Counted from the stretch's first letter, positions 6,293-36,311 are shown. The stretch: DNA of 36,743 nt from Psammoneis japonica (GCA_008632985.1 QPGO01000094.1:1-36743); one strand, 5' to 3'. Notes: generated by a model from the sequence alone, not told the origin. Translations and numbers: made by a program.

Positions 6293-7525
6293 GATCAAAT
6301 CAAGCTGTCGGCTGTGGGATAAAACAAGAAAGAAATGTTGAGGAGATTGCTTTGACTTGCTTTTATTTACGCAGTTGCCGATACGAATTTAGCATCAGAA
6401 GGATACTATCAATGGGTGCTTGTTGTTTCTGGTGACAACCGTTGGAAACACCGCCATCTCCTCACCTTCAATTTCATTCACTTGTTGGTCAAAGGTGCAA
6501 GCTCGAGCATAGCACGACGAACGACGCGACGATGATGGCGGGCGGAGAGGGTCGCACGTTGCGCTTCGTACTGATCGTACAGTGGAATCGTGCGGAGCAC
6601 GTCGCACGCTACAAAGTAAGCGGTAAGTGAACAGTGACACGGATGACGGACAGGGAATGCTCGTGCCTTCTCTTCTCTGATTTATTCCACATCCGGGTTT
6701 TTCCCTGTAGCACTGTGAACTGCGCAGCGGCCCTCTGCTCTCTAGCTACGCTAGAGTAGAGGAGAACAATTTTGGACAGCCAAACGCGAGGTTCGGGGAA
6801 TGAAAACACATTGAACAATGACTGTCAACAAACGGCTCAGCAACCAGCAATGCAGGCAAAGCAAGTGCAGCCAGCCACCAATGCAAGTGTCACCTTCAAA
6901 CAACACACTCTGGCTCTCTTCCAATGACGGGAATGAGTGGTCAGGACAAGCGCTCTTGGTGCAGATGGGGAAGCACTGCCGTTTGACATTGGCACTTTTT
7001 GTGTTGGAACATGCAGAGCTCTGGAGCAGTCACACCAACCACAAAGTGGCATGTCAACCAAGCCACAAGTCAGCAATGCCACACAGCAACCTGCTGAGCA
7101 ACAAAGATGGTCAAAAAAGGAGCCATCGATGATGCCAGCCTTGCTCTTGGAGCTGTGCATGATCGGTCATCATTTGCGCCAGATGGTGCAGCACAGCACA
7201 CTGCTTGTGCCTGCTCTGAGTTGTTGATTGACGTGCACATTGTCTGCAGCCACTTGGCGAACAGGCGCATCAATCAAAGCAGGCGCCATGTTTCAGACAG
7301 GCTGACATTCAGAAGAAGAACATTGAGCTCATTTTGCAGCAAGGGAAGAGCTGCAGAGTCTTGCTCTTCACACAACAATGCAACACGATTGAGCATGCCA
7401 CCCAAACCAGTGAAGTGCAAAAAAAGATCTAGAGTCTCGAGAACTGCACAAAGCATCAGCAACTGCCACCTGACTTTTCTGCAAGGCTGGAAAAATTTGT
7501 TGAAGAATGTGGCTCAGACCCGTTG

Positions 7526-8272
7526 TGCTTGTGGAAATTGAGGTGTGATTCAGGGTGCAATTTTGGGGTGGTGCAAAAATGTGCATTGCACAAATTTACA
7601 CCCCAAATTTGCACCCGATTTTTGCATGAGTTCAAGAGTGTGAAATTTGACATCTGCAACTTTGTGAGCAACGACACATTCATTGAACACACGCTCCTGA
7701 AAAATTGTTGACATTCAAAGCAGGAACATCCCCATGTCTCTAATTTCAACCAACTTGTCTGTGCATGACTTGAACGCTCCAATGACTGCATCAAAACACC
7801 GCAGCATTTGGTGGCTCCACTGCAACCTTGCACACATCAAATCTTAGAATGATGCTGTTGATGTCACGCATCATTGTTGCATCCATGGCTGAGGTTTCAG
7901 CAACCATGTGACACATTTTTCTTCTAAGAAGGCATGAAGGTGCCATCATTCTGTCATTTGTTGACTTCAATCTTGTCACTTTTTGCCATTCTTTCTTTCA
8001 TGAACACACCACAATGGCTCCCCAGCAACAATTTTTCAACATTTTGTCGACCAAAGTTTGTCGCTGATTGTTGGTTGTCATTGTTGTTCAGTGTTCACAT
8101 GTTTTCTGCCATTGTGGATGATGATGAGTCTGTTGGCTGTGCAAAAAATTTTACAGGCAAAAAATGCATGTCTCTGGTGGCCCATTTGTTGGCTGCATTT
8201 TTTGAGGGGTGCATTCCGCACGTTTTTGCATCCCGAAATTGCACCCCGAATTGCACCCCTCCTCCACGAGCA
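7526..8272. mobile_element. Degenerate non-autonomous TIR element (~750 bp)
   Basis: 7528-7591 (cttgtggaaattgaggtgtgattcagggtgcaattttggggtggtgcaaaaatgtgc) is an imperfect inverted copy of 8209-8270 (reverse complement ctcgtggaggaggggtgcaattcggggtgcaatttcgggatgcaaaaacgtgc). Confidence 0.6.
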
Positions 8273-8794
8273 TGACAGGTCTCAGTGGCATGGTCAGATG
8301 AAGCTTGCAAGACAGACAGATGGAGCTCACTTGCACTGGCTCAGAGATTGTCATTGAAGATGCCTCTGATGTGGCCAGCTCACAGACCCTGGAGCAGTCA
8401 CAAGCCTCTTTGGCTCACAATGTCCACACAAGACCATTGAAATGGCCCTGACTCAAGCAGATCTATGCACTGCAAAGATGGCAGTGGACAAAAATGCGCA
8501 GCTCATTGTCCCAGGCAGCTCTGACTTTGTCACACATGTTGGCCCAAGCAAAAATTGAGTGGAGAACTTGCTGATGTCATCAAATTGCTGTGAGACGTGA
8601 GGAACAGATTTGTTCATTTGGACACAAACAGGCCAAAAACCTGCCACAGATCTTCTTGACAAAATGCTCTGTCTGAAATTGGGGAGGTGCCTGTTTCTTC
8701 AAACAAGCAAAGATGATGCGTTTCTGATTGCAAGTCAAACACACTCATCCACTTGTGAAAGCTGAGCAAAACACTTGGAGTGCAGGAGCTCTCA

Positions 8795-8865
8795 ACAGGA
8801 GTGCTTGAGATGCAGCTCTTGACAGGAGTGCTGGAAATGCAGCACTTGATTGGAGCACTCAAGAT
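8795..8865 (+). repeat. Degenerate 27-bp tandem repeat (~2.5 copies)
   Basis: acaggagtgcttgagatgcagctcttg / acaggagtgctggaaatgcagcacttg / attggagcactcaagat. Confidence 0.6.
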
Positions 8866-9918
8866 TGCCCAACACCAACCAACTTGGGCAGTGTGGAGGA
8901 AGTGGTGGGTGTGGCTGTCAATGGGCATGCTCAAAATGATGCAGCGCCAACTGACAAGGGTGGTGCGGAGGAAGCAGTGGCGGGCGCACACGATGCAACA
9001 TCAGCTGACAAGGTTGGCACAGTGGAGGCAGCAGATGAAATGCCAACACACCCAAAGGCATGCCAACAAAGGAAGAGCTCAAATGTGTGGGGATTGTTGA
9101 GGGCGCAATGTCTTGCCTGTTTGGGAAGGTCAAGTTTGCAAGCTTGGCACTCGAGGATGATGACAGGGTCAAAAAGAATCCAGTTGGCTTCAAGCTCTGA
9201 TGGCATCAATCCATGGAAAGTGTTGCTGTGCAAGATTTTAATCATGCAACTCACCACAAGCATGTTCAGAAGACTGCCAATGAGCTGTTGCTGCTTTGTC
9301 TCAAAAAGAACAGATGGAAACATGGGCAGGTCAAGTCCAAGAGTTCACAACAATGAGCAGCACCAAGTTGTCCCAATGAGAGCCAAAACAATGACAGGTG
9401 CTCTCTGACATGTCCACCACCCCAAACAGCATGACCAATGCTTGACTGACCAAGAAGAAGAAGTGCTGCTGCTGTGTCAAAGGATGTGACAACAACAGCG
9501 CCAGCAGCAAGTTGAGGCAAGCACCTCAAATTCCGCCAAAGCTGTTGAGTGGTGCGACCAGAGCAAACAAAATCTTGCACCGTGTCAGATCTTTCAAGCA
9601 GCAGGAGTGGACCAGCAGCTTGAGTCATGGTCGATCGTGCAACTTAAAAGACATCTGACTGTGTTGCTTGCACTCCAAGGAATCTGTCAGTGGTGGGAAG
9701 CTGTCAGTGGGATGCTGTCAAGTGTTGATGTCCAAAATGGCCAAATGGTTGCTGCATTGTCAGAGCCATTTGACGCTCCTGTGCTGACTGGGAAGATCAA
9801 CTTCCACACACCTCAAAATGTGCAACCAAGTGGTGCTGGCACATTTCAAGAGCTTCTTTGGCATGCTGTCACGTTGGGCTGGGCAAATTCAATGTTGTCT
9901 CCAGCGGCATGATCTGCA

Positions 9919-10945
9919 ATGGCAAGAGAAGCCAGTCAAGCACAAAACATTGAGAGCAGTCTTGTGTTGCCCACACAAAATGCATGGGAAAATGCAGATC
10001 CCAAGTGGAAGAAGCCATGCTTCACACACAAAGATTTGACTCCAGAAGAAGCAAAGCAACGCACCAGTTTCTGGGACTTGAAACATTTGCTGCAGCATGT
10101 GGCTGTTGTGCACAATGGCAACTTGGAAGTCATTGCCAAAACTGCAACAAAACTGACCTGGCTGGAAGAGCTTCTTTTGCATTTTGAATTTGCTTGGGGT
10201 TGCATGAGGACACAGCTGCAAGATTGCAAAAAAGAGAGCATGATGCACATCCACACACATTGAGAAAAACAATTGCTCATTGCCAGAAAAGCACGCCAGA
10301 TTTTTGGGTGAGATGGCCGATGCATGCACCACAACAAAGAGGGCGCAAATTCATGAGACACAAGAGCTGGGGTGCACACTTTTGTCCAACAACTGGCCAC
10401 CGCATTGTCACCCATGATGCGTCAAATGTTCCCATGCCAGATCCAAGCTTGGGTGACCTCAACCAAGCACTGCTCCACAAATGCTGCTGCAACACATGCA
10501 TTGTGCAAGGGTGGGTGTTGCTGCACAGCTGCATTGTTGGTTGTGTGGTTTGCCACTTGTGGCTGGACACAGTGGCGGTGATTGGCAGATTGAAGGTGCA
10601 AAGGCTCTTGAGCTCCAAAAGTTGTTTGCTGAAACTGACCCTTCTTCTTCCAGAGCCTTTCTGAATGCATTCAACAAAGGTTGCCATCAGATGTTGGAGA
10701 CACAAAAGCACAGTCAAATGTGCTGTCAACCGGAGTTGGCAGATGAAAAGTTCAGAGATGCAACAAGGTCACTTGCGCAGGTTGTGTGGCTGTCATCCGT
10801 TCTGGTGACAAGAGGTGTGCAAAATGCACCAAAACCTGTGTCCTGGTTCATTGAAAGAGGGCGCACCAACCAACTTTGGGGCATTGATTCTTCACTCTGC
10901 AATGCATGGGAGGCATTTGCATTTTTTTGCAAACTTCATGTTTGA
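9919..10945 (+). pseudogene. DDE transposase remnant, PIF/Harbinger-ISL2EU (DDE_Tnp_4)-like
   Basis: Frameshifted frames give HRIVTHDASNVPMP, GHSGGD, FLNAFNKGCH (recalled consensus DKGY) and AVIRSGDKR, in the order expected for this family. Confidence 0.55.
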
Positions 10946-11112
10946 CGTGTTTCAATGAATGTTGCTGCTGCAGTGCACAGAGAAAATGCAGAGCTGTGCA
11001 GTTGTGAGCAGCATTGAAACACGGGGTGCCAGCAGCTCATGTTGGCATTTAAAGCATCTTCATTGCATGGCAAAGCATGGTCATGGACTCTGCAACAAAT
11101 TTGCACCAGAAA

Positions 11113-11479
11113 TGCACCATGCTCGAAGAACGAGTGTAAACGAAAGTAGAGTGGTGTACGAAAAGTGGAAATTGTGAGATTGAATTTTGCTCTGTGATTT
11201 TTGGTTTCTCCGAACGAGTTCTCAATGGCCTAAAGCTTCTGTACTGCTTCTACAGACGAAAGGCCTTTCGGAGAATATATTCGTGACAACAGATTGTCCG
11301 GATGCGATTGCCATTGACACGTAAGATGTCAACATCGTCAATCGATCGTATTTGCAATTCTCGACATCCGATCAACTCTGTGTGATCGTTCTGTCCTTTG
11401 TACGCATCCACGACTGTGGTACGATTGACATATAAATAATATATAATCATATATATGTATATAACAGTCGCATACTGCA
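11113..11479 (-). repeat. 3' LTR of the Gypsy element
   Basis: Colinear without indels with 15471-15837; about 32 substitutions by hand count. Confidence 0.93.
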
Positions 11480-11490
11480 TTCGCCTCCCT
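11480..11490 (-). other. Polypurine tract (PPT)
   Basis: Minus strand AGGGAGGCGAA immediately precedes the 3' LTR. Confidence 0.75.
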
Positions 11491-13970
11491 AATTGCACAT
11501 TAGAGTCATTTGTAAGTGGATTATTCGACGGACATCGACAGTGTCAATAATGTCTCCACTTTCACTGTATTGTGCCATTAGCAATGACTGTTGTTGTTTT
11601 GTATAGGCAATATAGGGCCGTTCCAATTTCCGAATGTCTTTTGAGAGTGACATTGTTTGTTTCTCACTTAATATGTATATATATAGTATTACGTCGAGTA
11701 TTCTCATTGACGTTCTTGTTGATATGAACACAAGGACTAATTGTCCTGGAGTAGTGTTTTTCCTGATATCGATTGTACATAGCATCGTGCCCAGTACTTA
11801 ATGTACGCTCTTAATTATGGCGTTCACTTACTTACTTGTGGATTTCATGTAGTTTGGCGGGCTTACTTTATATGCCATATTGCTCTGCTGCACTACCACG
11901 TTTCATAAGTAATAATAAACGATGGTCAAGATATTATGACCATTTCGTCTTGATAATCAATCCTGTGATGGTTATGAATTCCATTATGGATTTTTTTTTG
12001 TACTTCAACCATCTATCAGTTGGATTTTAATCGTTATTTGGACGTTTCTTTCTGACATACCGGTGTTATTTTGTCATTCCGAAGGCACTGGTTTCGTGCA
12101 CTAAGTGGATAAATGTCCATTTTTCTTTTCTTTTTCTAGATCTTTGGCACATCTCGTGTGTCGACATGATGTATATTTTAATGTCTTGCCTCGTACATTG
12201 TACAATACAACCGTACGGGTGTTGTGAGATTGTCTTTTGCCAGTGTGAAGTGGATACGTATAATGTATACCAATCTGTCACTGTTTTTTCCTAAATCGTC
12301 CTTTAAAAAGGCGATTTTATCCTTGTGACATGAGCATTTTTCGATCTCGCTCGCCTCCACGAAAAGTGTTCGTATGATATGTCGCGTCCGACAATTTGGA
12401 GGGAATGTCTTCTTCCCGTTTTTTAACGGTAGGACATTGTCGTAGGATTCAATTTTCTATAGTAAGTCGGCTGATCGCGTCTATCGCGACGATGTTCGCC
12501 TTGCCCTCGTTGTATTCTAATTCGGGACTGAAGTTGTCAACGTATGACTTTGTCCGTTGTGTCTTATGATCCGTATATGTATAAATCTGTTGGCCAAACA
12601 GTATATTTCGGAATTTTATAAGTGTTTTCACTATGGACAGAAGTTCTTTTTCCGTTGTAACGTATAATATTGAAATCCGTGTATGATAACAATATAGTTT
12701 TTGATTTGATGCGCTCCACATTTTCGGAGACTTTTCGTTCCGTACTTGTACTTTTGCCGTTTGACCTTTATTGAGATGAATTTGGCTAGTATTGTACAGG
12801 AGATCGTTGAGACTACATGTCTCGATAACAGCAACGTATGACAACGAGATGTCGTAGTGTTCTTTACGTTTTTCTCGTGTTGCGATTGCTTGAATCGCCT
12901 CCATTTTCTTTGCAATCGATTGCATGTCGTTACGCATGGAAGTCTTGATAGTTTATTTCAAGTTAAATAGTGAAGGACTTTTGTTGTTAACCTTCTAAGC
13001 GACTGTTCTAGTCGTTTGAATGCCGCATTAAGCTGTCACTTGCACAGGTGATGTTTTGAAGTTACTTTTGTCAGGCACAAACGATCACATGCAGTCGTTC
13101 TGACAACTTCAAACCTGTTGTGAGTTCACTCAAGTGTTGTATAAAAATATCTGGGGCTCTGTAGATTCTCATTGGAAGTCCACAGTGCTCATTTTCTCCC
13201 CACGGCATGATTTTCGTGTGAGCACGACGTGTGCTTTTTTTGTTTGACATGGTGGCATTCCATGTTTGAATCAAACAGATCACATGCATGAAACGTTCTT
13301 GCTTCAATGGCATTTCCTGAACATTGGGTGAAGGATGCACCACCTGTGTGAACCTTGTGCCAAGCTTCTGAGTGTCGGGTGCAGTCGAACTCGACCTGTT
13401 TTCTTTGGACAATGAGTCTCAGAGCGACTCATTCAGAGCAACTTCATTCTTGAGACTTCAATCTTTCACAATGGGTCAAACTCCTTTTGATTGGACGCCT
13501 CCAAAGACTGTGACAGGAGAAGGTTCTCACGCGTCGTGGAATCGCGTCAGATTTTCCACGATGAGATCCGCTGATGCTTCCCATGCATTCGTCTGAGGAA
13601 CTTTTCAAAACGATTTCAACCTCTCAAGAAGAAGATTGAGTTGGTTGTGTTCATTTGGGTCAGATGCATCGCCGCAGTTGTCACTTGATTAAGATCAATG
13701 GCGTGACAATGTGAGTCGAGGACCATTGGCTCCGTTGTTGACTCTGTTCACGGCGTCACATTTTTCAATGTGATCGGTTTTCAGCTTGAAAACATCGGCA
13801 TCGAAGAGTGTGTGAACATTCTTCGTAAGGCAATTGCTTCTTCCCATTAGATTTCTGCATTTGCGCAGTCCAGTGTGACTTGCAGGGCTGGACATTAAGT
13901 CGCGTCCCATGATCACATCATTTGAACCTGAAGAAAATTTGGTGTTTTCAACACATGCTGTTTGCATGTC
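11491..13970 (-). pseudogene. Gypsy pol remnants (protease, RT, RNase H, integrase)
   Basis: DVIMGRDLM (protease, ~13900); FDSNMECHH and MPWGENEHCGLPM...APDIF (RT, ~13140-13280); YVTTEKELLSIVKTL...YTDHK and ANIVAIDAISRL (RNase H, 12450-12670); DWY...QH...CQR, TPGQLV and DTVDVRRI (integrase). Confidence 0.85.
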
Positions 13971-15470
13971 AGCATGCCTTAAATTTCACACAGCGAGAAC
14001 TGAATTCGGTGTTTGCTGTCAGTCGTAAAGAGCTCACCCTTGGTTTCCCAAGTTTTTGGTGGCGGATTCTTGTGTTCTCAACTTTCGCACGAATTTGCGC
14101 AAAATTGTGGTTGACGATGTTCCGTTGTCGACAGGAACACGCAGGTGCTTTTTTTTTTCTCCTTTCCCAAGGAAGCATTCACACAAATGATGACTCCTGG
14201 ACTGGCATGAATTATTTCTGCCTTTTTTCTGGGCTTCCCAATGTCCAGCAAAGCACACAATTCGTGAACAGACCAAAATTGTTCTTTGGATTCAGCCTGG
14301 ATCATCCGATCAAATTGGTGTTTTTCTTCACTGAGGGCATCAGAATCTGATTCTTTGCCCTTGTGCTCTTTTTCTTTGTTCAAGGAACTCGCTTTGAGCA
14401 TTTTTTGAACCGCCTGATCAATCATGACGTTCATCTCTTTTTTTGCGAGTGGCATTTTCGTCATCGCGACGCGACCGCGTGCGATTGCCATTTGAACGGC
14501 GCATTTTTGGGTCTCTTTCAGAGTCACCCTTGCACTCTTTTGCCAGTTCATTTTTAGAATGGCTTCAATCCGTGATGTGGGCATTCTTTTTTCAAAGATG
14601 AGACCTTGCATTCACTTTGGATTGTTCTGGCACCATGTGGGAGACCATTTTTGGAACCAAATTTGGAACCTTTTTTATTTTGGAACCAACTGCGCTGTCA
14701 GAGCCTGAGTTGACATGTTTTTTCGTCACGGACGTCATGAACGACCTTTAGATGACTCAAAACTTAATCAGCTCATCAAGGATGAGTTGCAATGGTTGAT
14801 TGTTTTGGACAGTAGACTGATGCTGCCATCCTTGCGGTGCGAGTGACAGCTGACAAATCAGCGCTTGGTTTCCCGCTAGATTCGACTTAGAATCCATCTG
14901 AGGGTCGCACAGACTCTCATCGTTGACCTCTTGGGTCTGACAGAGGCTTTCCCGCTGTCAAGCAGCTCTGGTTTTCTTCAGGTCATCTCGAAAATAATTT
15001 CCCTGATTCTGAAGTGCATTTCCTCGGAGGACATGAGTTGTGAGACGCTTGAGGTGCTTTCCAACGATTCCCTCTTGCTCCTTGGACTCGAGGATCATCG
15101 ATTCGGTCTCAAAAAACTCTCCAACAGTCTCTCCTTGCATGCCAGACGCATTTCTTGGACCTGATCGACTCGGAACTTGCATTCTCTGCAACCATGACTT
15201 GGTGTAGATTTTTTGACAATGCGGTGTGCTTGAGAGCCCTTGATCCTTGGGTGCTTGGAACAGACCGCACTGGAGCGAATCCTCTTGTCTGGTGGACGAA
15301 AAACAACGTTCCATCTTGAGGCACTGCTCGGCTTGAGCTTCTTCCGCTTTGGAAATCGATTCCAGCAGAACTGATGCGATTCATTCCTGTTCACAGAAGA
15401 ATTTGCAAAGGCACATCAGTTAAAATTTTCATTTTCCGTGCTTTTTACCTTCTGTGGTGTGTGTGCACAA

Positions 15471-15837
15471 TGCACTGTGCTCGAAGAACGAGTGCAAACG
15501 AAAGTAGAACAGTGTGCGAAAAGTGGAAATTATGAGATTAAATTTTGCTCTGTGATTTTTGGTTTCTCCGAACGAGTTCTCAATGGCCCAAAGCTTCTGT
15601 GCTGCTTCTACAGACGAAAGGCCTTTCGGAGAACACATTCGTGACAACAGATTGTCCGGATGCGATTGCCATTGACACGCAAGATGTCAACATCGTCAAT
15701 CGATCGTATTTGCAATTCTCGACATCCGATCAACTCTGTGTGATCGTTCTGTCCTTTGCACGCATCCATGACTGTGGTGCGATTGACGTGCAAATGACGT
15801 GCAATCACACATGTGTGCACAACAGTCGCATGCTGCA
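15471..15837 (-). repeat. 5' LTR of the Gypsy element
   Basis: Direct repeat of 11113-11479 with TG...CA ends. Confidence 0.93.
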
Positions 15838-15841
15838 GAAA

Positions 15842-18220
15842 ATTCAACGCCCCAAAAATGAACCATGAACACCTTCCATTGTGAGCTTGATCTGCTGCAC
15901 AAGAAGGTTGTTTCTTTCAAGATGCACATCTTTGGCTTTTTTCTCTCTCCCTGCTCTGTCTGTTTGTGTGCTGGCTCATCTCTTCTGTGCAATGCTCTGT
16001 TGTGTGTGTGTGCTCTCCTTTTGCCAGAAAAAAGATGTGGCTGTGGGATGTGTGCTGCCACTTGCTTTGAATCATGTCTGCAAGTGCGTGCCATTCTTTC
16101 GCTGAAGTGCAGCATCCTGTTGGGCAAATTCAAATTGTTGTTGACACAAGTGCCCATCAACATGATCATGGCAGAGTCTGTTTTTCTCTGCGCTCTTGAT
16201 CACAGCATTGTGTGTGCCAAAGAAATGAAAACAAACAACAAGTGTCTGTGCCAAAGAAATGAAAACAAACAACAAATCTTCTTTGGCTCTCTTGATCTCA
16301 GTGTGCAAAGCTCTTGTTGGTTGAATTGCCGCTCAAAGTGTTGTCATCAATTGACAAGAGCTGGCACTCTTCAACATGGGTGTTTTTTCCTCTTGTGTGT
16401 CATGGCAAGCTCACCCCAAAGGGGTGGCTCAAGCAAAAGCTGCACTCAGCAACCACAGTGTTTTCTGCTAAAATCAACAGAGCTGCAGCCAAATCTGATG
16501 CTGGGTGATCTGGCACAAATGTCAATTGTGTGGTGGTGCCTGAGGCCAATGACTGATGCCTCAAAAAACACATTTTGGGTCTCTTTGCATGTGTGCAAAA
16601 TGTGTTTTTGACAACAACAATTGCTCTCTTTTGTTGCAAACCTCCTCACAATGCATCATTGACAAATCTGCCACACCCACTCTCCCAGTTTCCGGTTTCC
16701 AGTGTTGCCCCATTTAAAATTGAGGCATTGCCCCAGACAAAAAATCAGCACTGCACAAGCACCAGATCACCCCCAGCTGCTTTGTTGCCTGTTTCCTGTC
16801 ACTGTTGTTGTGCGCCATTGTCATCATTGCTTGCAAAGTGAGTCACTTCGCCAGCTGCTTTGTGGCACCACACAAGAAGTTTTGCGCATCATCTGCAAGC
16901 TCTGCAAAATGACGTGGTCTTTCTGGGGCCTGCTGGAAATTTTGGTCACATGCATTGAAAAGGTCAACATGAGCAGCAAGCCACAAGAGCAGGACCTGGG
17001 TGCATTGTTGTGCTGTTTCTGAACTCTGAACATTTTTCTTTGGTTGTGCATTTTCCTCATGGCACCATTTTTGGAGATGCTTCCACACATTTCTGTGCAC
17101 AGCCAGCTGTTTTTGAATTAGACAGCCAACCAAGCAGCTGGCAACCACCCAAACAACCACAAAGTTTTCACTGCCACAAGCCTGGAATGCCTGGCACATG
17201 ACACTGGTGCTCCTCAACTCTGAAGCACAACCCCCTGGGTTGGCCAGCGCTCCTCAGCTCTGAAGCACCACCTCCTGGGTTGGCTGGCTGAGCTGGTCAA
17301 AGTCAAGAGATTAGAGCACAAAAGCAAAGCTGCCTCAAGGAGCAAGTGCACATGTGCTGGTCATCTGAGCACACTTGCTTGCACCATGAAAAAGCAAAAA
17401 GGCTGCTGAGTTTGGGAAAAGTGCACAGTTTCTCAGCAGTGTTGAGGTCACTCAGAGTCTCTCTTCATTTCAGACCTCCTGGCTGTGCTGCTTGCCTGCA
17501 TTTGCAGCAGCAGCAATGCCAAAAGACCCTCTGTCTCAGCTGCCAGCATTGGCTGCAGCCCATTAATCAGACCATGATGTGCTGCCTCCAGAGCCAGTGA
17601 AAGACTGTCTCTTTGGCACATCTGCCCCCCTGGCAAGACATTGGCGTGCGCTGCGCTTTGAGCGCAGCTGATTGTGAAAATTTGAGCCGAGAGAGAGAGA
17701 AGAGCAGTGTGCCTCATTTCTTTGAGGGGCTGTCTGATTTGTCCTCTCTTCTGCTGCAGGCTTTAATTTTCAACATGCACGGCAACAAATGGCGGCACTG
17801 CACCCCTGCCAGGGCATGCAGCAACAGCGTGGCGCGACAGCCCCACATGGGAGAGAAAAGCCTCCACAGGGTTTGCAGTCACCAGCTCAACAATCAACTT
17901 GCAGAAGAATGGGTTTTCTTTCACAACAACTGCCCTTGTTTTTTTTTTCTGACAAGAGACAAAAGAGGTCACCTGCCGCCACAAAAGTCCCTTGTTTTGG
18001 CAAAAAAGCTGCTGCAGTGCCCAGAAGCCGGTGCTGGAGAGAGCCCCTCCTCCATTTGACAACAACATCATGTGTGCAGTGCAGTGATGCAGGACAACCT
18101 TGACAATCATGAACGAGACCAGTTTTCTCATCAATGGGGAGAAACACTGGGCAGTTTCAATGCGATTGCCCGCCACTTTGACGTGAGCAACTTTCGACGA
18201 CTGGGGGTGTGACGAAAAAA
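15842..18220. other. TpA- and CpG-depleted degenerate repeat domain (right part of island), family unassigned
   Basis: About six TA in ~2.4 kb; ORFs are Tyr-free; the pattern ends abruptly at ctttaaaattataatac (18221-18237). Confidence 0.85.
17205..17284 (+). repeat. 40-bp tandem duplication
   Basis: gctcctcaactctgaagcacaaccccctgggttggc / gctcctcagctctgaagcaccacctcctgggttggc. Confidence 0.85.
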
Positions 18221-18262
18221 CTTTAAAATTATAATACATTTTTCATTTCGTTTGTACAGTAG

Positions 18263-18344
18263 GACATCGTGCCGGAGTGGTAAACGGGATAGATTGCTAA
18301 TCTATTGTGCTATGCACGCCAGAGTTCGAATCTCTGCGATGTCG
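18263..18344 (+). tRNA. tRNA-Ser (anticodon GCT)
   Basis: Acceptor stem GACATCG/CGATGTC with discriminator G; D-arm GCCGGAGTGGTAAACGG; anticodon arm ATAGA-TTGCTAA-TCTAT; long variable arm GTGC-TAT-GCAC; T-loop GTTCGAATC. Confidence 0.95.
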
Positions 18345-18346
18345 AA

Positions 18347-18353
18347 TTTTTTT
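18347..18353 (+). terminator. Pol III oligo-dT terminator
   Basis: T7 run 2 nt after the tRNA; a TATA-like attataat lies about 30 nt upstream of the tRNA. Confidence 0.8.
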
Positions 18354-18568
18354 GCTTGAAACGCCTCATCTTGGGCGTATTGTACCGGCAGGTCTACGGG
18401 TACCTAAGTACATACCGTACACACTATGTGCTATTTGGTTTCTGAAAGTACTACGGAGTATTATTTTACTTAGTAGTCTACGGTACACCCTACAGTACCG
18501 GTAGGGCCCCATCTTACGGTACCGGTAGGTCGTAGGGATGCTTCGTACAAGGGATTATCCCTTGCTTC

Positions 18569-18698
18569 GTACCGCTTTTCCTCCACATTTCTGCGTCATT
18601 CAATCTATGATGGCGATCTTTCTGCATTGATTGTAGTACTGCTTTTCCTCCACATTTCTCCGTCATTCAGTCCATGATGGCGATCTTCTGCATGGATT
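18569..18698 (+). repeat. ~65-bp tandem duplication
   Basis: gcttttcctccacatttct(g/c)cgtcattca(a/g)tc(t/c)atgatggcgatctt occurs at ~18574 and ~18641. Confidence 0.85.
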
Positions 18699-19026
18699 AC
18701 TTCGAATGCATGAAGAAACGCGAGAGGACGAATGAGAAAGGTCTTTACATATGGCAAAAGCAGATGAAATTGGCTTAGGGCATAGCACTACCAACTGGAG
18801 ACTACTAAAGAAGAATACTACATTCGTAAAGTGTTACTGGTGGCAGCCACCAAAGCTGAATATTACATTCGTACAATGACATCAGCTACCCAAGTAGAAT
18901 GCAAGAGATTGAGAGGCTATCCCCTAGACTCAAAATGAACTCCCAATTGTACTTCTTGGTTTCCGAGACCACAAAACAATGCCCATCATGTAAGCGGCCG
19001 TTCCCTTTCTGTTTACTCCCCCCCGT

Positions 19027-27347: not shown

Positions 27348-27979
27348 CAAGGCTGTAGAAAGACCCGAGAAACAGGCACTCCTTGGAGAATATCTGGTTC
27401 AATGCACCGTGGAACTGGCACCTGAAATCAATCATCAGAATAATACTTACGGATTCAGCCAAAATTCAATGCGAAAGTTGTTGGATTAATGCCCCCCAAG
27501 AGGGAAGACGGAGCCTCCGACAATTCTAGCTCTGATAATAGGGAGATAGAACTACTCTAGAGACTGCCTCTAGTAGAGCGCCCTTTTCACTTCAAACTAT
27601 TCTACTACTCTAGAGACTAGGGCTAGCTAGAAAAACCATGAGTTGAAACCACGGATACCGCTATGGCGTACGGTAGAGCTACGGTACCGGTACGGTCGGG
27701 TCGGTGGGTGTACACTTCTGGGGTGTAGGCGGCCCATCGCAATGTCTGTGTGTCCAAATAATGAGTTTTCTGGGTGTGAAGCCCAGATTGAAATTTCTGC
27801 TCTCACTGCGCAAGTGGCAGTTTGTGTGCCGTGGCTTGTGGCTTGCGGCCATGGACGAGGACCGGCGTTGGCTGCCCACAGCCACGCAGCAGCGCCGGCC
27901 CCGAGATTTCGTCAGGGCATGTACCATGTACCTTCACTTCTAGAGTGGTGCAGTTACCTTGACTCAAACTACGCCTACG

Positions 27980-30060
27980 ATGGCCTCTCATGAGCACTTG
28001 CAACAACTGAATGATGAAGATTCAACAAGCTCCGAGAGCGGTTCATCTACATCATCGAGCGATGACGATGACATGTCTGAATCCTCGGACGTACCTCAGG
28101 ACATTGGCAATGTCGACTCCGGTGTTGTGACTGTCGCAGATCCTGACCGTAGCGCAGAATTAGAAAGACCCAAACCTAAGCTCAAGCTCTCACTGCGGAT
28201 GCCAAAGAAGACGACTTCAGAAGAAGGAGATGATGAAGAGAAGGACATGGAAATCGATACCGCTGCAGCTTCTTCTGTTGCAGATTCAACTGATGCTGAT
28301 GAAGACATCGTGGATGAGACTGAGGTTGTGAAAGCCACCGTTGTTCCCAGCGACGATGGAGACGCCATTGAAGAAGTTGTTGAAGCAACTGTCGCAGAGG
28401 AGGTACCTACCGCCACCGCCGTGCCTTCTGCCACACAGTCTCAACCGCGACCCAAGCCATCCGCCCCCAAGAGTCGCCGCTCTCCAACGACTGTTCTTCA
28501 TGCGGGGCGCCCGGTTCGGCTGCCTTCAATGTCATCTCCTGGCTTACTCATAACACCGACTGCGGGTGTGTATCGTGGCGATGCTGATGCTGACGGTTTT
28601 ACAACCCCTGCATCAGTCTTTACCCGTGCCATGTCTTTGGCAGGGTACAGCACAGAAGGGAGAACCAAGCATCCACACAGAGGATCTAGTGTCGAAAGAG
28701 TCGTCGATGATATGTTCGACAGCAATATTCGCTTCACTTTGCATTTCCCACGCCTCGTCCCTGAGGATTTGTGGAGTCACAACGCAATGGCTTCGCCAAA
28801 TCAGGCATCGTCAGAGGAACTAGCATCGCACGACAAAACTTCATCTCTTCCACAAATCTTAGTCCGTGCTCTTGCAAAGCCTGAGGAAGAAAGGATGAAC
28901 GTAGCTAGTGAAGACGTAGGTGCAAACGGACGCAAAAAGCGAAGGACGTGTTTGTCTTTCGTTGACATGGCCCCTGTTTCTCTTACGATTCCATACCCAG
29001 AATCGTATATCCAGAAACGCCTTGACTACACCAAGAAGGTCGAAGCTCGGGAGCGTGCTATCGTTGCCTCTCAAGAATCAGCGCAGGCAGTGGAAGAAGC
29101 AAAGGAAACAAGCGCTACTACAAACACACCCAGCGAAAACGGCCTCCATGCAGCACCAAAGAATCCGCAGCAGATGGAAATACCACCAATACCAACACCA
29201 CCCAGTCCTCCTTCCGAGATTGATGATGACTATTTCAAAAGTACTGACAAGGAGCGACATCCTATTCGTATCATCAAGGGGAAGGAGAAGTTTGTTTCAC
29301 ACCTTGACAAAGATTGCTTCCACATTACAGATGGACGGTACTATGGGCTCTCGACCAATTCTATTGCCGACCCCCATTTTGTTGGGCCGAATGCTCCTGG
29401 TATTGTAGGCTTAAATATATCAGGGGGGACTGGCTTAGCAACTTCTGCCAGCAATGCGGTAACCGCGACTTCTTCGCAAGGATACTTTGGGAGAAATCCG
29501 GGTGGCGGAAGCAGCGGTGCCGTTGTTGGATCGAAGAACCCGGCCGAAACGAACAAAGCGTCTTCCAAAGAGGCTGCGTCGTCGGGAGCTCCAGGCAGTT
29601 CTACCAAGACTTCAAAAGGTTCAAAGAGCAATGAAGCAGCGACGTCCACGTCAACGGACTTGAAGAAATTCATGGAGCAGGGAGACACGACTCTGGTTGA
29701 AGCAATGAAGGTTTGCATCACTCGTGCCGCCGTTCACGCAAGTCGAACGGGTATGCATGGAGGATCGTTTGTCGGTTCGGACGGGGAAACGTATCCTGAC
29801 ATCAGCAAGGCGTTTGCAGCACATGCAGGTTTGAGGCCGTGCAATAGATGCAAGAACAATAAGCAGGGTGTAAGTTTCATGATGTCATCGCATTCGAGTT
29901 ATGCTTGTTTGTCTAATACTTTCCTTTCTCTATTCAATAATAGGCATATCACTGTCGTCTACGTAGAAAGCATAAGGATGTTGACTACGATGGTGGAAAT
30001 AGTTGGGCAGTGCTTGCCCCGTTGTTCGAAGAGAAGATTGGTGATTTGGTACACAGGTGA
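27980..30060 (+). CDS. Hypothetical protein with acidic disordered N-terminus and C-terminal Cys/His motif; intron 29870-29943
   Basis: Long ORF; splicing gives PCNRCKNNKQG/AYHCRLRRKH...DGGNSW, ending at TGA 30058-30060. Confidence 0.75.
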
Positions 30061-30781
30061 TGAATGCAATTCGCTGGGTGCAATTGGGGACTTTACTGAA
30101 CGTTAAGCAAAGTTAAAATTGAATCGTTAAACTATGTCCGGTATCTCTAGTTGGATGGTGAGCTAGCTAGTTGAATTTCCTTATTTAGTTACTCTGTTTG
30201 GAAACTGGCTACAACTACCCGGTAGTTCTTTGAAGGAAGACGAGACGCATGCCTCCTATCCCTCTCTAGTAGAATTAAATTGTTTCCGCTTATTCTCATA
30301 GATCGTGGTGACTAAGACGAAGCAAATCATTCTGACACTACCAAGAGAGGCCTCCTCTCTAGCTAGCTACTAGCTAATGAGTAATTAGAGCTAAGAGTAC
30401 GCTACTCTAGAGGGACAACTCTGGATGGTAGCTACTCTCTAGCTACTCTAGCTACTAGCTAGTAGAGAGTAGCTACTAGAGTGGAGATAGAGCTACCGAA
30501 CAGAAGCAAGAGGAATAGTGTTTTGGTTGCGGCGCGACGAATGGTTGGCAACGCCCTCCTGGTGACAGCGGCGCGCGCGACAATCATTTCGAGCGTGAGC
30601 GAGAACGTGGAACGGCAGGTGTTGCGGTTGCTATGGGCTTTTGGGCCGGAGATGCTTTGATGTCGGTGCTTGCTGTCGGCAAACGTTTGATTTAACTTCC
30701 CTCTCTACCATACTCGCTCTAGAGCAAGTAAGCTTGTCACGAAAGACGCACCAGGGAAAACCAGGTCGGTATAAGCAATTG

Positions 30782-33091
30782 ATGTTGCGTCTTATTTCAC
30801 AGCCAAGATGTTTCTCCAAGACTGGTCGAACCGTACCTAGGAATCGGATGCCAACTGGTAAAAAGCACGAGGCGGAAAGATCAGGTTCCTCGTCTGTCGA
30901 GCCATTCGCCACACATCGAAGTCTTCTCTCGTCGGCATCCTTTTCATCTGCCTTAGACGCCTCAGAAAAATCAGATTTGACATGTCATCATCTGACAATG
31001 TCAGAAGTCTCACGCTCAAGCATGCAGCAGCGAGAAGTGATGAAGAACTTTTTTTCTATGCTGCAGGTTACATTATCCATGGCGTCGCGAGATCGTCGAT
31101 TGTACGAGTTCACAGATTCCTGGTCGTCCGAATCGAATGCGCTCCCACAGAGTGAGTCCAGGCACAAGTTAGAAGCTCAAGCTCAGGTTGTACCGTTATC
31201 TATGCAAAGGGGCTACATGGATGGAAATCAAATCCGACAGCGTAGTGGCATGAATAGTCTACACTTGTCCACCGAGATCATTGGTGATGATGAAATCACT
31301 GTCAGCAGCTTAAGAGAGCTCGAGGAAGCTCAACTTGAACCCGAGCAGAAGCAGACCCGGACTCCACGCCTGCAGAAACCACCATTCGCTGCTTCTCCTT
31401 TTGAGACTAATATATCTCGCGCCTTAAACTCTGACTTGTTGTCGAAGGTCAGGCGACTATTCATCGAATCAGTGGAGAAGGGACAGAGGCTCAATCCAAA
31501 TGCTCTGACGAAGCTGTTTAAATATCTGGTGAAAAGGGACATCGCTTGTGCTTACAATGTGATGTGCCGCTATCGAGAACAAGAGGGAACCCCAATGGAG
31601 CCACGAATGTATGCAGTGTTGTGCGATGCTATTGGATATGAACGTCCAAGACACGTTTCATCGCGTGATGTTACGACAATGGTAAAAAGGCTTAGGGGTG
31701 AATTGGAAAAGCTTGATGTGGTAAAATACCAACATGTTTGTTATCCTCGTTTGGTCAAGAGCCTAGTCAGACAACGTGACGCGTATCTGGGTCGAGGGGC
31801 ATTGGCGTTTTACCAGGACATGGTTGATGGCGACTTCCCAGGAAAGGAACAAACATGGGAGAAATGCATCGTATGTTCTCGCTATTCTAGGCAACATGAC
31901 CTTCCCTATCATGATATGCTGCGTGAAATTGTTGAGTCAGGTATGTTTCAACGCTTTCGTGAATGTGCAGGGTCGTTCATTCTATAGCTCTGACCCCGAG
32001 CTGACCACGTTTTCGCTATTTGCAGGACGACGGCCATATCCACCACATGCAATTCATGTACTGCAGAATCTTTTTCCATTCACAGATATCAAAGCCACTT
32101 CCGTCGCGTTGCAAGCCCTCCTGGAATTGCAAACATCCGCACAGCCCTCGCACCGGTTTCAGGTTTATGGTGTTGATTCTGGGACCTTGGAGCAGATCAC
32201 TGCAGCTGGAGCGCGAAAGGCGTCGCCAGAGCTAAATTTACTTGTTTGGGATATGTTGGAAGTTATGGGGAGTCAACCGACAGAAGCCATGTACGAAAAC
32301 ACAATTCAAGCATTCTGCATGTCGTATCGGCAAGACCACAACGTCTTCGCGGTTTTGGCGGAAATGGAATCTCGCGGATTTAAACCGACCAGGGCGCTGA
32401 TTCGAAGTATTTCTAGGTCATTGAGGTAAGATTTTCAGTTCCTGTTCTACAGATCTCGTCAAATATCTCACGGTGCGCCTTCTCCAATAGGTTTTCTCCC
32501 GGCAGAACGGATCACGCGTATTACATGTTAAAGCGCGAAGACATCGATGATTCTTCGAATATCTCCGTAGCCTCTTTGAACGCGGTGCTTTCAGCATGTG
32601 CGGAACAGGGCGACGTGGATCGCACATTTTCGTCATTCGACGATTTTGAAGTCCTTGGGCTGGACCCGGATGAGGATTCCTTTTCTTTCCTCTTAGAGGC
32701 TTTGGTGAACAACGCTCACAACAAACTGAAGAGAGGGGACAAAGAAGTAACAGAGAGCATCGATGCGGCAGAATCGATTGTTGCGATGATGAAGGATTTT
32801 GATATTTCGCTTTCTTCCCATTCCCTGTATCGATATGTGCAACTTATGTGTTTTGCCGGGGATATTACCAGGGCATCAGAAGTTGTCTATGACGCAATAG
32901 AGCGAAGGCGCAGAGTGCCGAACAAAACATTGTTCATTCTAGCGAAGGAATGCGGGGCTGCTGGACAATTCGACATGGCGCGGGACATCGCTTCGAAGAC
33001 AAGCGAACCATGGGATGCGTTGAATGATAAGATCAGCCGCTGGGCAGCAGACTTCAAGCGTGAGCGAACACCAGATCTGGCAAAAGAATGA
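30782..33091 (+). CDS. Pentatricopeptide-repeat (PPR)-like protein, probably organellar; introns 31941-32025 and 32426-32490
   Basis: PPR-like units SLNAVLSACAEQGDVDRTFSSFDDFEVLGLDPD and MYENTIQAFC...LAEMESRGFKP. Both introns restore frame. Arg-rich N-terminus MLRLISQPR. Confidence 0.8.
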
Positions 33092-36018: not shown

Positions 36019-36311
36019 NNNNNNNNNNNNNNNNNNNNNNNNNNNNNNNNNNNNNNNNNNNNNNNNNNNNNNNNNNNNNNNNNNNNNNNNNNNNNNNNNN
36101 NNNNNNNNNNNNNNNNNNNNNNNNNNNNNNNNNNNNNNNNNNNNNNNNNNNNNNNNNNNNNNNNNNNNNNNNNNNNNNNNNNNNNNNNNNNNNNNNNNNN
36201 NNNNNNNNNNNNNNNNNNNNNNNNNNNNNNNNNNNNNNNNNNNNNNNNNNNNNNNNNNNNNNNNNNNNNNNNNNNNNNNNNNNNNNNNNNNNNNNNNNNN
36301 NNNNNNNNNNN
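36019..36311. other. Assembly gap (N run)
   Basis: Run of n characters. Confidence 0.99.

Follow-up and report, generated by a model that had tools for sequence, protein, structure and literature searches.

What process can make the two long terminal repeats (LTRs) of a single retrotransposon, which are identical when made, differ by transitions only and nearly always at the same dinucleotide? This question is raised by a Ty3/gypsy element of the pennate diatom Psammoneis japonica, located at positions 11113-15837 of a stretch of 36,743 nucleotides (GCA_008632985.1 QPGO01000094.1:1-36743), the whole of which is referred to here as the window. The explanation that we consider quite likely is a hypermutation that changes T:A to C:G in place, targeted to TpA steps, across a silenced and probably foreign domain of 11.4 kb.

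The left LTR (11113-11479, minus strand) is the 3' LTR of an element encoded on the minus strand and is the TA-rich copy, with 25 TA. The right LTR (15471-15837, minus strand) is the element's 5' LTR and the converted copy, in which 5 TA remain. The two copies are 367 bp each and align without gaps, differing at 32 positions (8.7%), all 32 of them transitions, with 0 transversions and 0 indels. The initial annotation of this locus had reported about 32 differences between the 367-bp copies without indels or transversions, about 23 of them TA in one copy against CA or TG in the other, plus two sites with CA against TG, and realignment returned these counts exactly or nearly so. An independent repeat search of the window recovers the same LTR pair, and once the window is recoded into purines and pyrimidines, 11111-11479 and 15469-15837 are 100% identical; no direct or inverted repeat beyond the LTR pair was detected at k=36 in the recoded window. 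Under a neutral 2:1 ratio, finding transitions at 32 of 32 differences has a probability of about 2e-6, and pyrimidine-purine (YpR) steps contain 31 of the 32 differences while making up 202 of the 367 positions (binomial P 1.4e-7), in support of the earlier claim that the spectrum is not neutral.

The differences are strongly unequal between the copies. TA stands against CA or TG at 23 dinucleotide sites, and it is the left copy that reads TA at 21 of them and the right copy at the other 2; CA stands against TG at two sites (11118-19 and 11152-53), and TA against CG at one. The A/T state is found in the left copy at 26 of the differing sites and in the right copy at 6. Followed into the right copy, the 25 TAs of the left LTR read CA at 12 sites, TG at 9, CG at 1, and TA at 3; that is, 22 of 25 are altered. 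CpG is almost intact over the same repeats, with 21/22 and 21/23 of the CpGs common to both copies. YpR steps as a class had been named as the target, and the differences do fall in them (31/32), but the step that is hit is specifically TpA, with CpG nearly untouched.

The LTR pair alone gives no direction of change, because an exchange between TA and CA/TG is symmetric. If the A/T states are taken as ancestral, 29 of the 32 sites lie in TpA (the exceptions are 11151, 11411, and 11430); if the G/C states are ancestral, 23 of the 32 lie in CpA/TpG, and 8 require a CpG context. Only three left-LTR TAs survive on the right, matching the near-TA-free flanks outside the element. Direction can also be read from coding sequence, for which seven relatives (P0121-P0127) were aligned to the element interior. 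Tyrosine positions of the relatives are retained at 0/9 in the TA-poor part versus 11/24 in the TA-normal part (Fisher 0.015). Right of 13162, 0/7 are kept (replaced by His at three, Asn at two, Lys at one, and Ala at one), and between 13001 and 13162, 0/2 (one His, one Leu); the catalytic Tyr of the YxDD motif reads His at 13091-13089. Invariant Tyr columns of a 5-sequence alignment, judged by eye, are kept at 0/5 in the TA-poor part versus 4/4 in the TA-normal part. Over the aligned pol frames, Tyr accounts for 1 of 343 codons on the right and 9 of 226 on the left, and for 2.8-7.6% in the relatives. Since no working protease or reverse transcriptase (RT) can do without Tyr codons, it is the TA-poor state that is derived. 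Single-transition mismatches to the relatives are directional right of 13162, where 7 read TA to CA/TG and 0 the reverse, and balanced left of 13000, with 7 TA to CA/TG versus 8 reverse (Fisher 0.022 against the right side).

Base composition of related loci bears on the same point. Across 79 related metagenome-contig loci, the median whole-locus rho(TA) is 0.72 (minimum, 0.54), and the lowest value among their 662 one-kb windows is 0.26. Per kb, the left windows of the element read 0.86, 0.87, and 0.73, and its right windows read 0.13, 0.10, 0.12, and 0.19. Since the relatives have a median of 0.72 and none falls below 0.26 per kb, it is the TA-rich left copy that fits the family norm. The left part also lacks the signature of repeat-induced point mutation (RIP), as its mismatch directions are balanced and 1 of 10 in-frame stops (13073-12770) is of the Trp/Gln-to-stop type. 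These observations support T:A to C:G change at TpA over a RIP-type C to T change. The proposal in the initial annotation that ancestral TAs were struck independently on either strand agrees with the 29 of 32 sites that fit TpA, with the Tyr loss, and with the TA norm of the relatives.

The phenomenon extends beyond the LTRs to an 11.4-kb domain at 6758-18223 in which TpA is scarce and CpA/TpG is overrepresented, as seen in a TA map, in RIP-type indices, and in rho values. On the left, the last normal TA is at 6757 and the next at 7430; on the right, TAs resume as a dense run from 18224, the one before it lying at 17764. Between approximately 6800 and 18200, TpA/ApT is 0.0-0.1 and (CpA+TpG)/(ApC+GpT) is ~2, against ~0.6 and ~1.2 in the rest of the window. 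The domain contains distinct compartments. The outer part (6790-11112 plus 15838-18220) holds 16 TA in 6,706 bp, with rho(TA) 0.04, rho(CG) 0.23, and rho(CA/TG) 1.86; the expected number of TA is ~282 (Poisson 4e-97). The hypermutated right part of the element (13163-15837, minus strand) has 23 TA where ~200 are expected, with rho(TA) 0.12, rho(CA/TG) 1.44, and CpG that is not depleted (rho(CG) 0.84). The unmutated left part of the element (11137-13162, minus strand; GC 38.6%) has 152 TA, with rho(TA) 0.80, rho(CG) 1.31, and rho(CA/TG) 1.18. Outside the domain, the corresponding window values are 0.62, 0.97, and 1.13. The summed YpR fraction is 23-26% in all four compartments, with TA down and CA+TG up; a stable YpR total is expected if transitions alone interconvert TA, CG, and CA/TG.

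The outer domain consists of a left part (6790-11112; 10 TA, CpG-poor, without a recognizable protein domain) and a right part (15838-18223; 6 TA, CpG-poor). A Pfam search of its six frames, read through stops as X, returned 0 families, and no repeat of it was found within the window at k=36 in purine/pyrimidine coding. From the CpG loss and the lack of genes, we infer a probably foreign origin for this 6.7-kb part. Because TGA is the sole stop left in TA-free DNA, long Cys/His-rich open frames occur in it, for example, at 15862-16611 (249 codons), with no Pfam match; they could be mistaken for genes. Two tandem 33-nt copies with 97% identity and a spacing of 34 nt also lie inside the outer domain, at 16209-16275.

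Several features of the pattern describe how the changes arose. Both strands are affected, with 12 CA versus 9 TG outcomes in the LTR, no CA/TG skew along the domain, and no significant runs of CA or TG outcomes by strand in a runs test. The change occurred after integration, because the LTRs were identical when made and the flanks outside the element share the signature. It was much faster than other decay: the LTR pair shows approximately 29 TpA hits for at most 3 other differences, and in the young element ~90% of TA is gone while CpG is nearly intact, whereas in the outer part CpG is down to the low rho already given. The warning in the initial annotation that LTR-based ages would be inflated is thus given a size: since only 3 of the 32 differences lie outside TpA, the naive LTR divergence of 8.7% overstates a value of about 0.8%, and dating by LTR divergence at this element is inflated approximately ten-fold.

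Survival of TA depends on the neighboring base. Among the 39 TAs that survive in the depleted parts, 25 have T as their 5' neighbor and 1 has A, against a window background of 19% T and 24% A (chi-square 4e-11), and TTAA accounts for 12 of the 39. When the right part is scaled to the densities of the left, rough survival values are ~0.01 for ATA, 0.09 for CTA/GTA, and 0.33 for TTA. This graded neighbor rule, with ATA nearly gone and TTA spared, suggests an enzyme-like preference. Within the otherwise converted right part, five surviving TAs cluster in 120 bp (15421-15539) where the 5' LTR meets the primer-binding region, either as a protected patch or by chance.

The element itself has termini of the form TG...CA and is flanked on both sides by a 4-bp GAAA target-site duplication, read from the sequence at 11109-11112 and again at 15838-15841. 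A polypurine tract, AGGGAGGCGAA on the minus strand (11480-11492), abuts the 3' LTR and sets the orientation of the element; given this tract beside the left LTR and the pol order on the minus strand, the right LTR is the element's 5' LTR. The order protease-RT-RNase H-integrase, as in Ty3/gypsy elements, was recovered on the minus strand with Pfam (RT_RNaseH), tblastn, and a profile of 5 relatives. Judged by these sequence features, the structure is a real Ty3/gypsy LTR retrotransposon, present as a defective copy. Its coding remnants, all on the minus strand, comprise an integrase core remnant (11753-11845; domain 4 of the profile of 5 relatives and tblastn with P0125), a stop-interrupted N-terminal zinc-finger region of integrase (12110-12400; tblastn with P0124 and P0125), an RNase H domain with its tyrosines kept (12422-12664; Pfam RT_RNaseH, tblastn at 55% identity, and the profile), the fingers/palm of RT (13101-13376), in which homology crosses the boundary between mutated and unmutated DNA unbroken and conserved Tyr, that of YxDD included, reads His, and a region from protease to the start of RT (13355-14107) with 0 Tyr in 251 codons.

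The copy is defective, as its numerous stops and its two or more frame changes show, and Pfam searches of the element frames, both separately and with X read-through, gave a weak RT_RNaseH match only. A 167-codon open frame at 12449-12952 (minus strand) lies in TA-rich DNA, with RNase H making up only its last ~70 residues; homology upstream of RNase H (the YRDMW region) sits in another, stop-bearing frame, the frame changes near 12665, and the long open stretch is therefore partly out of frame. The closest proteins are ~55-60% identical in RNase H. A search of the 167-residue frame against 1.84 billion representatives found 260 relatives, none above ~60% identity over most of the match, and a word-index search for longer relatives gave 7 matches at 41-56% identity. 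A 48-base invariant LTR stretch had 0 matches in metagenome contigs, and no close family member of the element was found in the collections searched.

The mutated tracts do not end abruptly. Over the first 70 bp of the LTRs, both copies were struck, independently, at 4 of 7 inferred TAs, and beyond this point hits are in the right copy only; hits specific to the left copy are confined to the first 70 bp of the left LTR (11118, 11153, 11174, and 11182). At the other end, 13001-13200 has 7 TA per 200 bp, between the 12-22 found further left and the 0 found further right, with converted sites inside it, and the boundary at 13162 falls within a continuous RT-coding segment. The spared 2 kb may reflect tracts that entered from both marked flanks and stopped at variable end points, or it may have arisen when an unmutated copy later served as donor in gene conversion, or as a mosaic made by polishing. 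The form of this second view that survives best among the alternatives accepts the hypermutation as real but holds that the LTRs are not sisters, an unmutated copy of the same family having supplied approximately 11183-13162 through gene conversion or recombination. It would change the meaning of the internal control and not the mutational reading. The spared block begins less than 70 bp from the element edge, where homology to another copy would start, ends in the RT-coding segment with homology unbroken, and follows 70 bp in which both LTRs were hit independently, after which the left was not. Yet both ends of the block are graded, as shown by the 4 of 7 TAs hit on one side and by the 7 TA at 13001-13200 and the Tyr-to-His change at 13091 on the other, and several mutation tracts with differing end points would give the same graded ends. 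Moreover, no donor copy was found among repeats in the window, metagenome contigs, or protein representatives. We regard such a replacement as rather unlikely, although it is the alternative to be taken most seriously.

The mechanism that we propose for the hypermutation is a mutator that would act on genomic DNA after integration and turn TpA into CpA or TpG on either strand. The domain would combine an old 6.7-kb stretch, which has also been stripped of CpG, with a younger, nested Ty3/gypsy retrotransposon. Conversion would be near saturation in the old part, with ~95% of the expected TAs lost; in the young element, the right 2.7 kb would be ~90% converted, with a fade-out inside the RT gene. 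The mutator would have spared the left 2 kb and, with it, most of the left LTR, which would account for LTRs that are different at almost nothing but TpA; the LTR pair would thereby provide a built-in comparison of before and after. The likely enzyme would be a nuclear DNA adenine deaminase of the TadA/ADAT2 kind. On either strand it would attack the A of 5'-TA, more readily where an A lies two bases upstream of that target (ATA) and less readily where a T takes this place (TTA). Guidance would come from chromatin state, not from sequence repetition, with the right-hand stop at a tRNA gene. The tRNA substrate of TadA/ADAT2 has an invariable U33-A34, and adenine deamination at 5'-TA would be favored for this reason.

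A different chemistry could leave the same record. If the T of TpA were oxidized to 5-hydroxymethyl- or 5-formyluracil by a dioxygenase of the TET/JBP type, it would mispair with G and yield T to C changes. As TA is palindromic, T to C cannot be told from A to G on the opposite strand in any of our counts. Thymine hydroxylation with a TpA preference is known in dinoflagellates, and 5-formyluracil pairs with G. The U33-A34 context of the TadA/ADAT2 substrate agrees with a 5'-TA rule, and we hold thymine oxidation to be improbable, less so than the technical explanation below. The authors of a preprint on a TpA-directed mutator in the chlorarachniophyte Bigelowiella natans likewise favor an ADAT2-type deaminase and name one B. 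natans candidate (Mettrop et al., bioRxiv 10.64898/2026.01.13.699255).

A number of points weigh against TpA-targeted hypermutation as we describe it. The spared 2-kb block lies inside the mutated domain without a demonstrated cause, and the mutator enzyme is a candidate that we infer. Stops are as frequent in one half of the element as in the other (11 X in each half of the aligned frames); together with at most 3 ordinary LTR differences, this implies that the element was defective at insertion or that its history is more complex. The outgroup relatives are only ~50-60% identical, at one Tyr position (before TDHK) they naturally carry either Y or H, and the polarity assigned to single LTR sites draws on context, flanks, and protein logic and should be read as probable for each site. 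The signature is absent from the 79 related metagenome loci and from 157 related proteins, none of which is Tyr-free; both sets were chosen through intact Tyr-containing motifs, which gives this absence little weight on the question of generality. Finally, one DNA run has 72% of the words sampled from 9000-18900, and this run is possibly the source of the assembly.

This last point bears on a technical origin, in which modified bases at TpA were miscalled, or the assembly was mis-polished, and the TA-normal 2 kb was borrowed from another copy. No second independent run containing the region was found, nor any RNA run, and a mosaic within a repeated element is a possible product of mis-polishing. 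The 72% of exact 31-mers carried by the k-mer contigs of that one run speak against an artifact only weakly, as platform and part are unspecified. A strand-tied basecalling error can be rejected: at the palindromic TA it predicts many TA and CG outcomes, but the 25 LTR TAs yield CG just once and TA three times. Furthermore, CpG in the outer domain is depleted, not raised; the borders match landmarks, namely, the element edge and a tRNA gene; and the outer CpG decay and the protein decay are independent signs of real, old sequence. The same signature arose de novo in Illumina-sequenced B. natans lines (Mettrop et al.). An artifact therefore appears very improbable.

Least probable of all, to the point that we give it hardly any credence, is a RIP-like C to T change at CpA in a natively TA-poor element, with the left 2 kb, including the left LTR, as the mutated part. 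RIP is conventionally called with cut-offs of 1.03 for (CpA+TpG)/(ApC+GpT) and 0.89 for TpA/ApT. By symmetry, 23 of the 32 LTR differences also fit CpA/TpG to TpA, the left part has a substrate index of 0.91-1.01, under the conventional 1.03, with a GC content of 38-39%, and a conserved Trp reads TAG at 12815. But the left-part TpA/ApT of 0.7-0.8 is under 0.89, mismatches left of 13000 are directionless (7 versus 8), and only 1 of the 10 in-frame stops is of the Trp/Gln type. Such a change also requires 8 hits in CpG context plus one more outside the expected context, offers no explanation for flanks with only 16 TA in 6.7 kb, and demands a functional ancestor without Tyr codons in protease and RT and with His at the YxDD Tyr; moreover, the left part, not the right, fits the norm of the 79 relatives, and the host is a diatom, not a fungus. 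Four further candidates were rejected: ordinary RIP, given the domain-wide TpA/ApT of 0.0-0.1, the substrate index of ~2, and contrary polarity tests; CpG decay alone, which cannot remove TpA and left LTR CpG almost untouched while 22/25 TAs changed; ADAR/APOBEC editing before integration, given LTRs that differ at 32 sites, the 12:9 strand outcome, and depleted flanks; and natural UpA/CpG suppression as in RNA viruses, which is far too weak.

The closest counterpart to TpA-targeted hypermutation of this domain is the B. natans system. Of the 302 nuclear point mutations that arose in mutation-accumulation lines, 231 were located in two integrated viral regions, and 230 of those 231 were A to G/T to C, all at TpA; the main text of the preprint also describes 124 clusters of TpA-depleted, CpA+TpG-enriched 1-kb windows, an enrichment of RT and DDE domains among TpA-depleted coding sequences, a single-copy target, and, for some lineages, a de novo rate that is locally elevated (about 1e-7 to 1e-6 per site per generation), and it proposes an ADAT2-type DNA adenine deaminase (Mettrop et al.). 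As described there, the two systems share changes that are almost exclusively A to G/T to C at TpA, giving TpG or CpA by strand, and a footprint of TpA depletion with CpA+TpG gain; the B. natans changes are confined to integrated foreign DNA. Applying the B. natans cluster rule, as given in the preprint, to the window identified 7001-11000 (four consecutive windows) as well as windows at 13001, 16001, and 17001, and none outside the domain. The diatom domain is a discrete region, with sharp borders at 6757/6790 and 18223/18224, a nested Ty3/gypsy element, and an outer part without a recognizable domain.

The differences are also substantial. The host is a diatom instead of a chlorarachniophyte, and the targets are an LTR retrotransposon and a 6.7-kb stretch without an assigned identity rather than giant-virus or virophage DNA. 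TpA is also depleted to a far greater extent here, at rho 0.04-0.12 versus the 0.45 given for the B. natans nucleocytoplasmic large DNA virus (NCLDV) region, and our record is a fossil one with an LTR pair as a clock, while that of B. natans consists of de novo mutations in experimental lines. The trinucleotide context (TTA spared, ATA preferred) and a tract end inside an element are described here; a term search of the main text of the preprint found diatoms, LTRs, trinucleotides, and flanking context unmentioned (Mettrop et al.). What is new, relative to that very recent preprint insofar as its main text shows, is the TpA-erasing signature in a diatom and on a retrotransposon. Our full-text searches, which do not cover most subscription journals, found no diatom report of such TpA mutation and, as a matching mutator, only the B. 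natans preprint.

Other known systems resemble the process in part. RIP of the fungal Pezizomycotina is likewise a dinucleotide-specific, transition-only inactivation of mobile DNA at the DNA level on both strands, and it too distorts LTR dating and dinucleotide indices. Its polarity is the reverse, as in a mirror: CpA/TpG is turned into TpA and GC falls under RIP, whereas here TpA is destroyed and GC rises. RIP also requires duplicated sequence and a sexual cycle, and the repeat search of the window found no repeat for the outer domain; its hosts are filamentous ascomycetes with the RID machinery, while the host gene here is nearest to diatom proteins. Diatom transposons are CpG-methylated. 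Deamination of methylated CpG accounts for the outer CpG loss (rho 0.23) and for at most 1-3 LTR differences (e.g., 11411), and it adds CpA/TpG. If a deaminase is involved, the process would resemble the retroelement hypermutation driven by ADAR (A-to-I in double-stranded RNA) and APOBEC3 (C-to-U in cDNA). To our knowledge, ADAR is restricted to animals. Editing before integration leaves identical LTRs and affects one strand within the limits of the element, while here the LTRs differ, outcomes are split 12:9, and flanks are affected. ADAR is stated in the preprint to prefer a 5' U (Mettrop et al.). In architecture, the element resembles other diatom Ty3/gypsy elements: its LTRs have TG...CA ends, the target duplication is short, a polypurine tract is present, and the pol order is protease-RT-RNase H-integrase. 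It is unlike intact ones in its stops and at least two frame changes.

If real, these observations would add a second and ecologically dominant algal group with a T:A to C:G mutator at TpA in silenced foreign DNA, and what has been a curiosity of one species would become a candidate for a general genome defense of eukaryotes with a polarity opposite to that of RIP. A broader proposal, which we advance tentatively and do not ourselves expect to hold in full, is that diatoms share a Bigelowiella-type TpA-erasing defense that is old and widespread in the stramenopile-alveolate-Rhizaria group (SAR), in which a nuclear DNA adenine deaminase, guided by chromatin state and not by repetition, works best at ATA and worst at TTA, and its tracts extend from DNA that is already marked into new insertions and are stopped by barrier elements such as tRNA genes. 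Such a defense would mirror fungal RIP but increase GC where RIP decreases it. The extended context, the tract ends, and the possible tRNA barrier offer handles on the enzyme and its guidance. There are also practical consequences for annotation. Gene callers predict long false open reading frames in TA-free DNA because its only stops are TGA, and such copies, stripped of every Tyr codon, thereby escape homology searches. A screen for rho(TpA) below 0.2 together with CpA+TpG above 1.5 would flag such domains cheaply.

The domain is embedded among host genes, which encode a mitochondrial carrier and Dus, CENP-O, ThiF, and TPR proteins; the best named relatives of the Dus frame are from Bacillariaceae sp., Cylindrotheca, Nitzschia, and Pseudo-nitzschia, at 67-74% identity, whereas a Protein Atlas search with a host gene gave no informative taxon. 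A tRNA-Ser(GCT) gene (18263-18344, plus strand; ARAGORN, and Rfam tRNA at 58.5 bits) lies ~40 bp past the right border of the domain, and CpG is normal again ~70 bp before that border. tRNA genes act as chromatin barriers in yeasts, and this gene may be a boundary element that halts the mutated domain. Further to the right, 29501-31000 is locally TA-rich (TpA/ApT, ~1.2; (CpA+TpG)/(ApC+GpT), ~1.0) and overlaps two long open frames without a Pfam match (27944-30106 and 30599-31987), and a run of 293 N at 36019-36311 is probably an assembly gap or a masked stretch.

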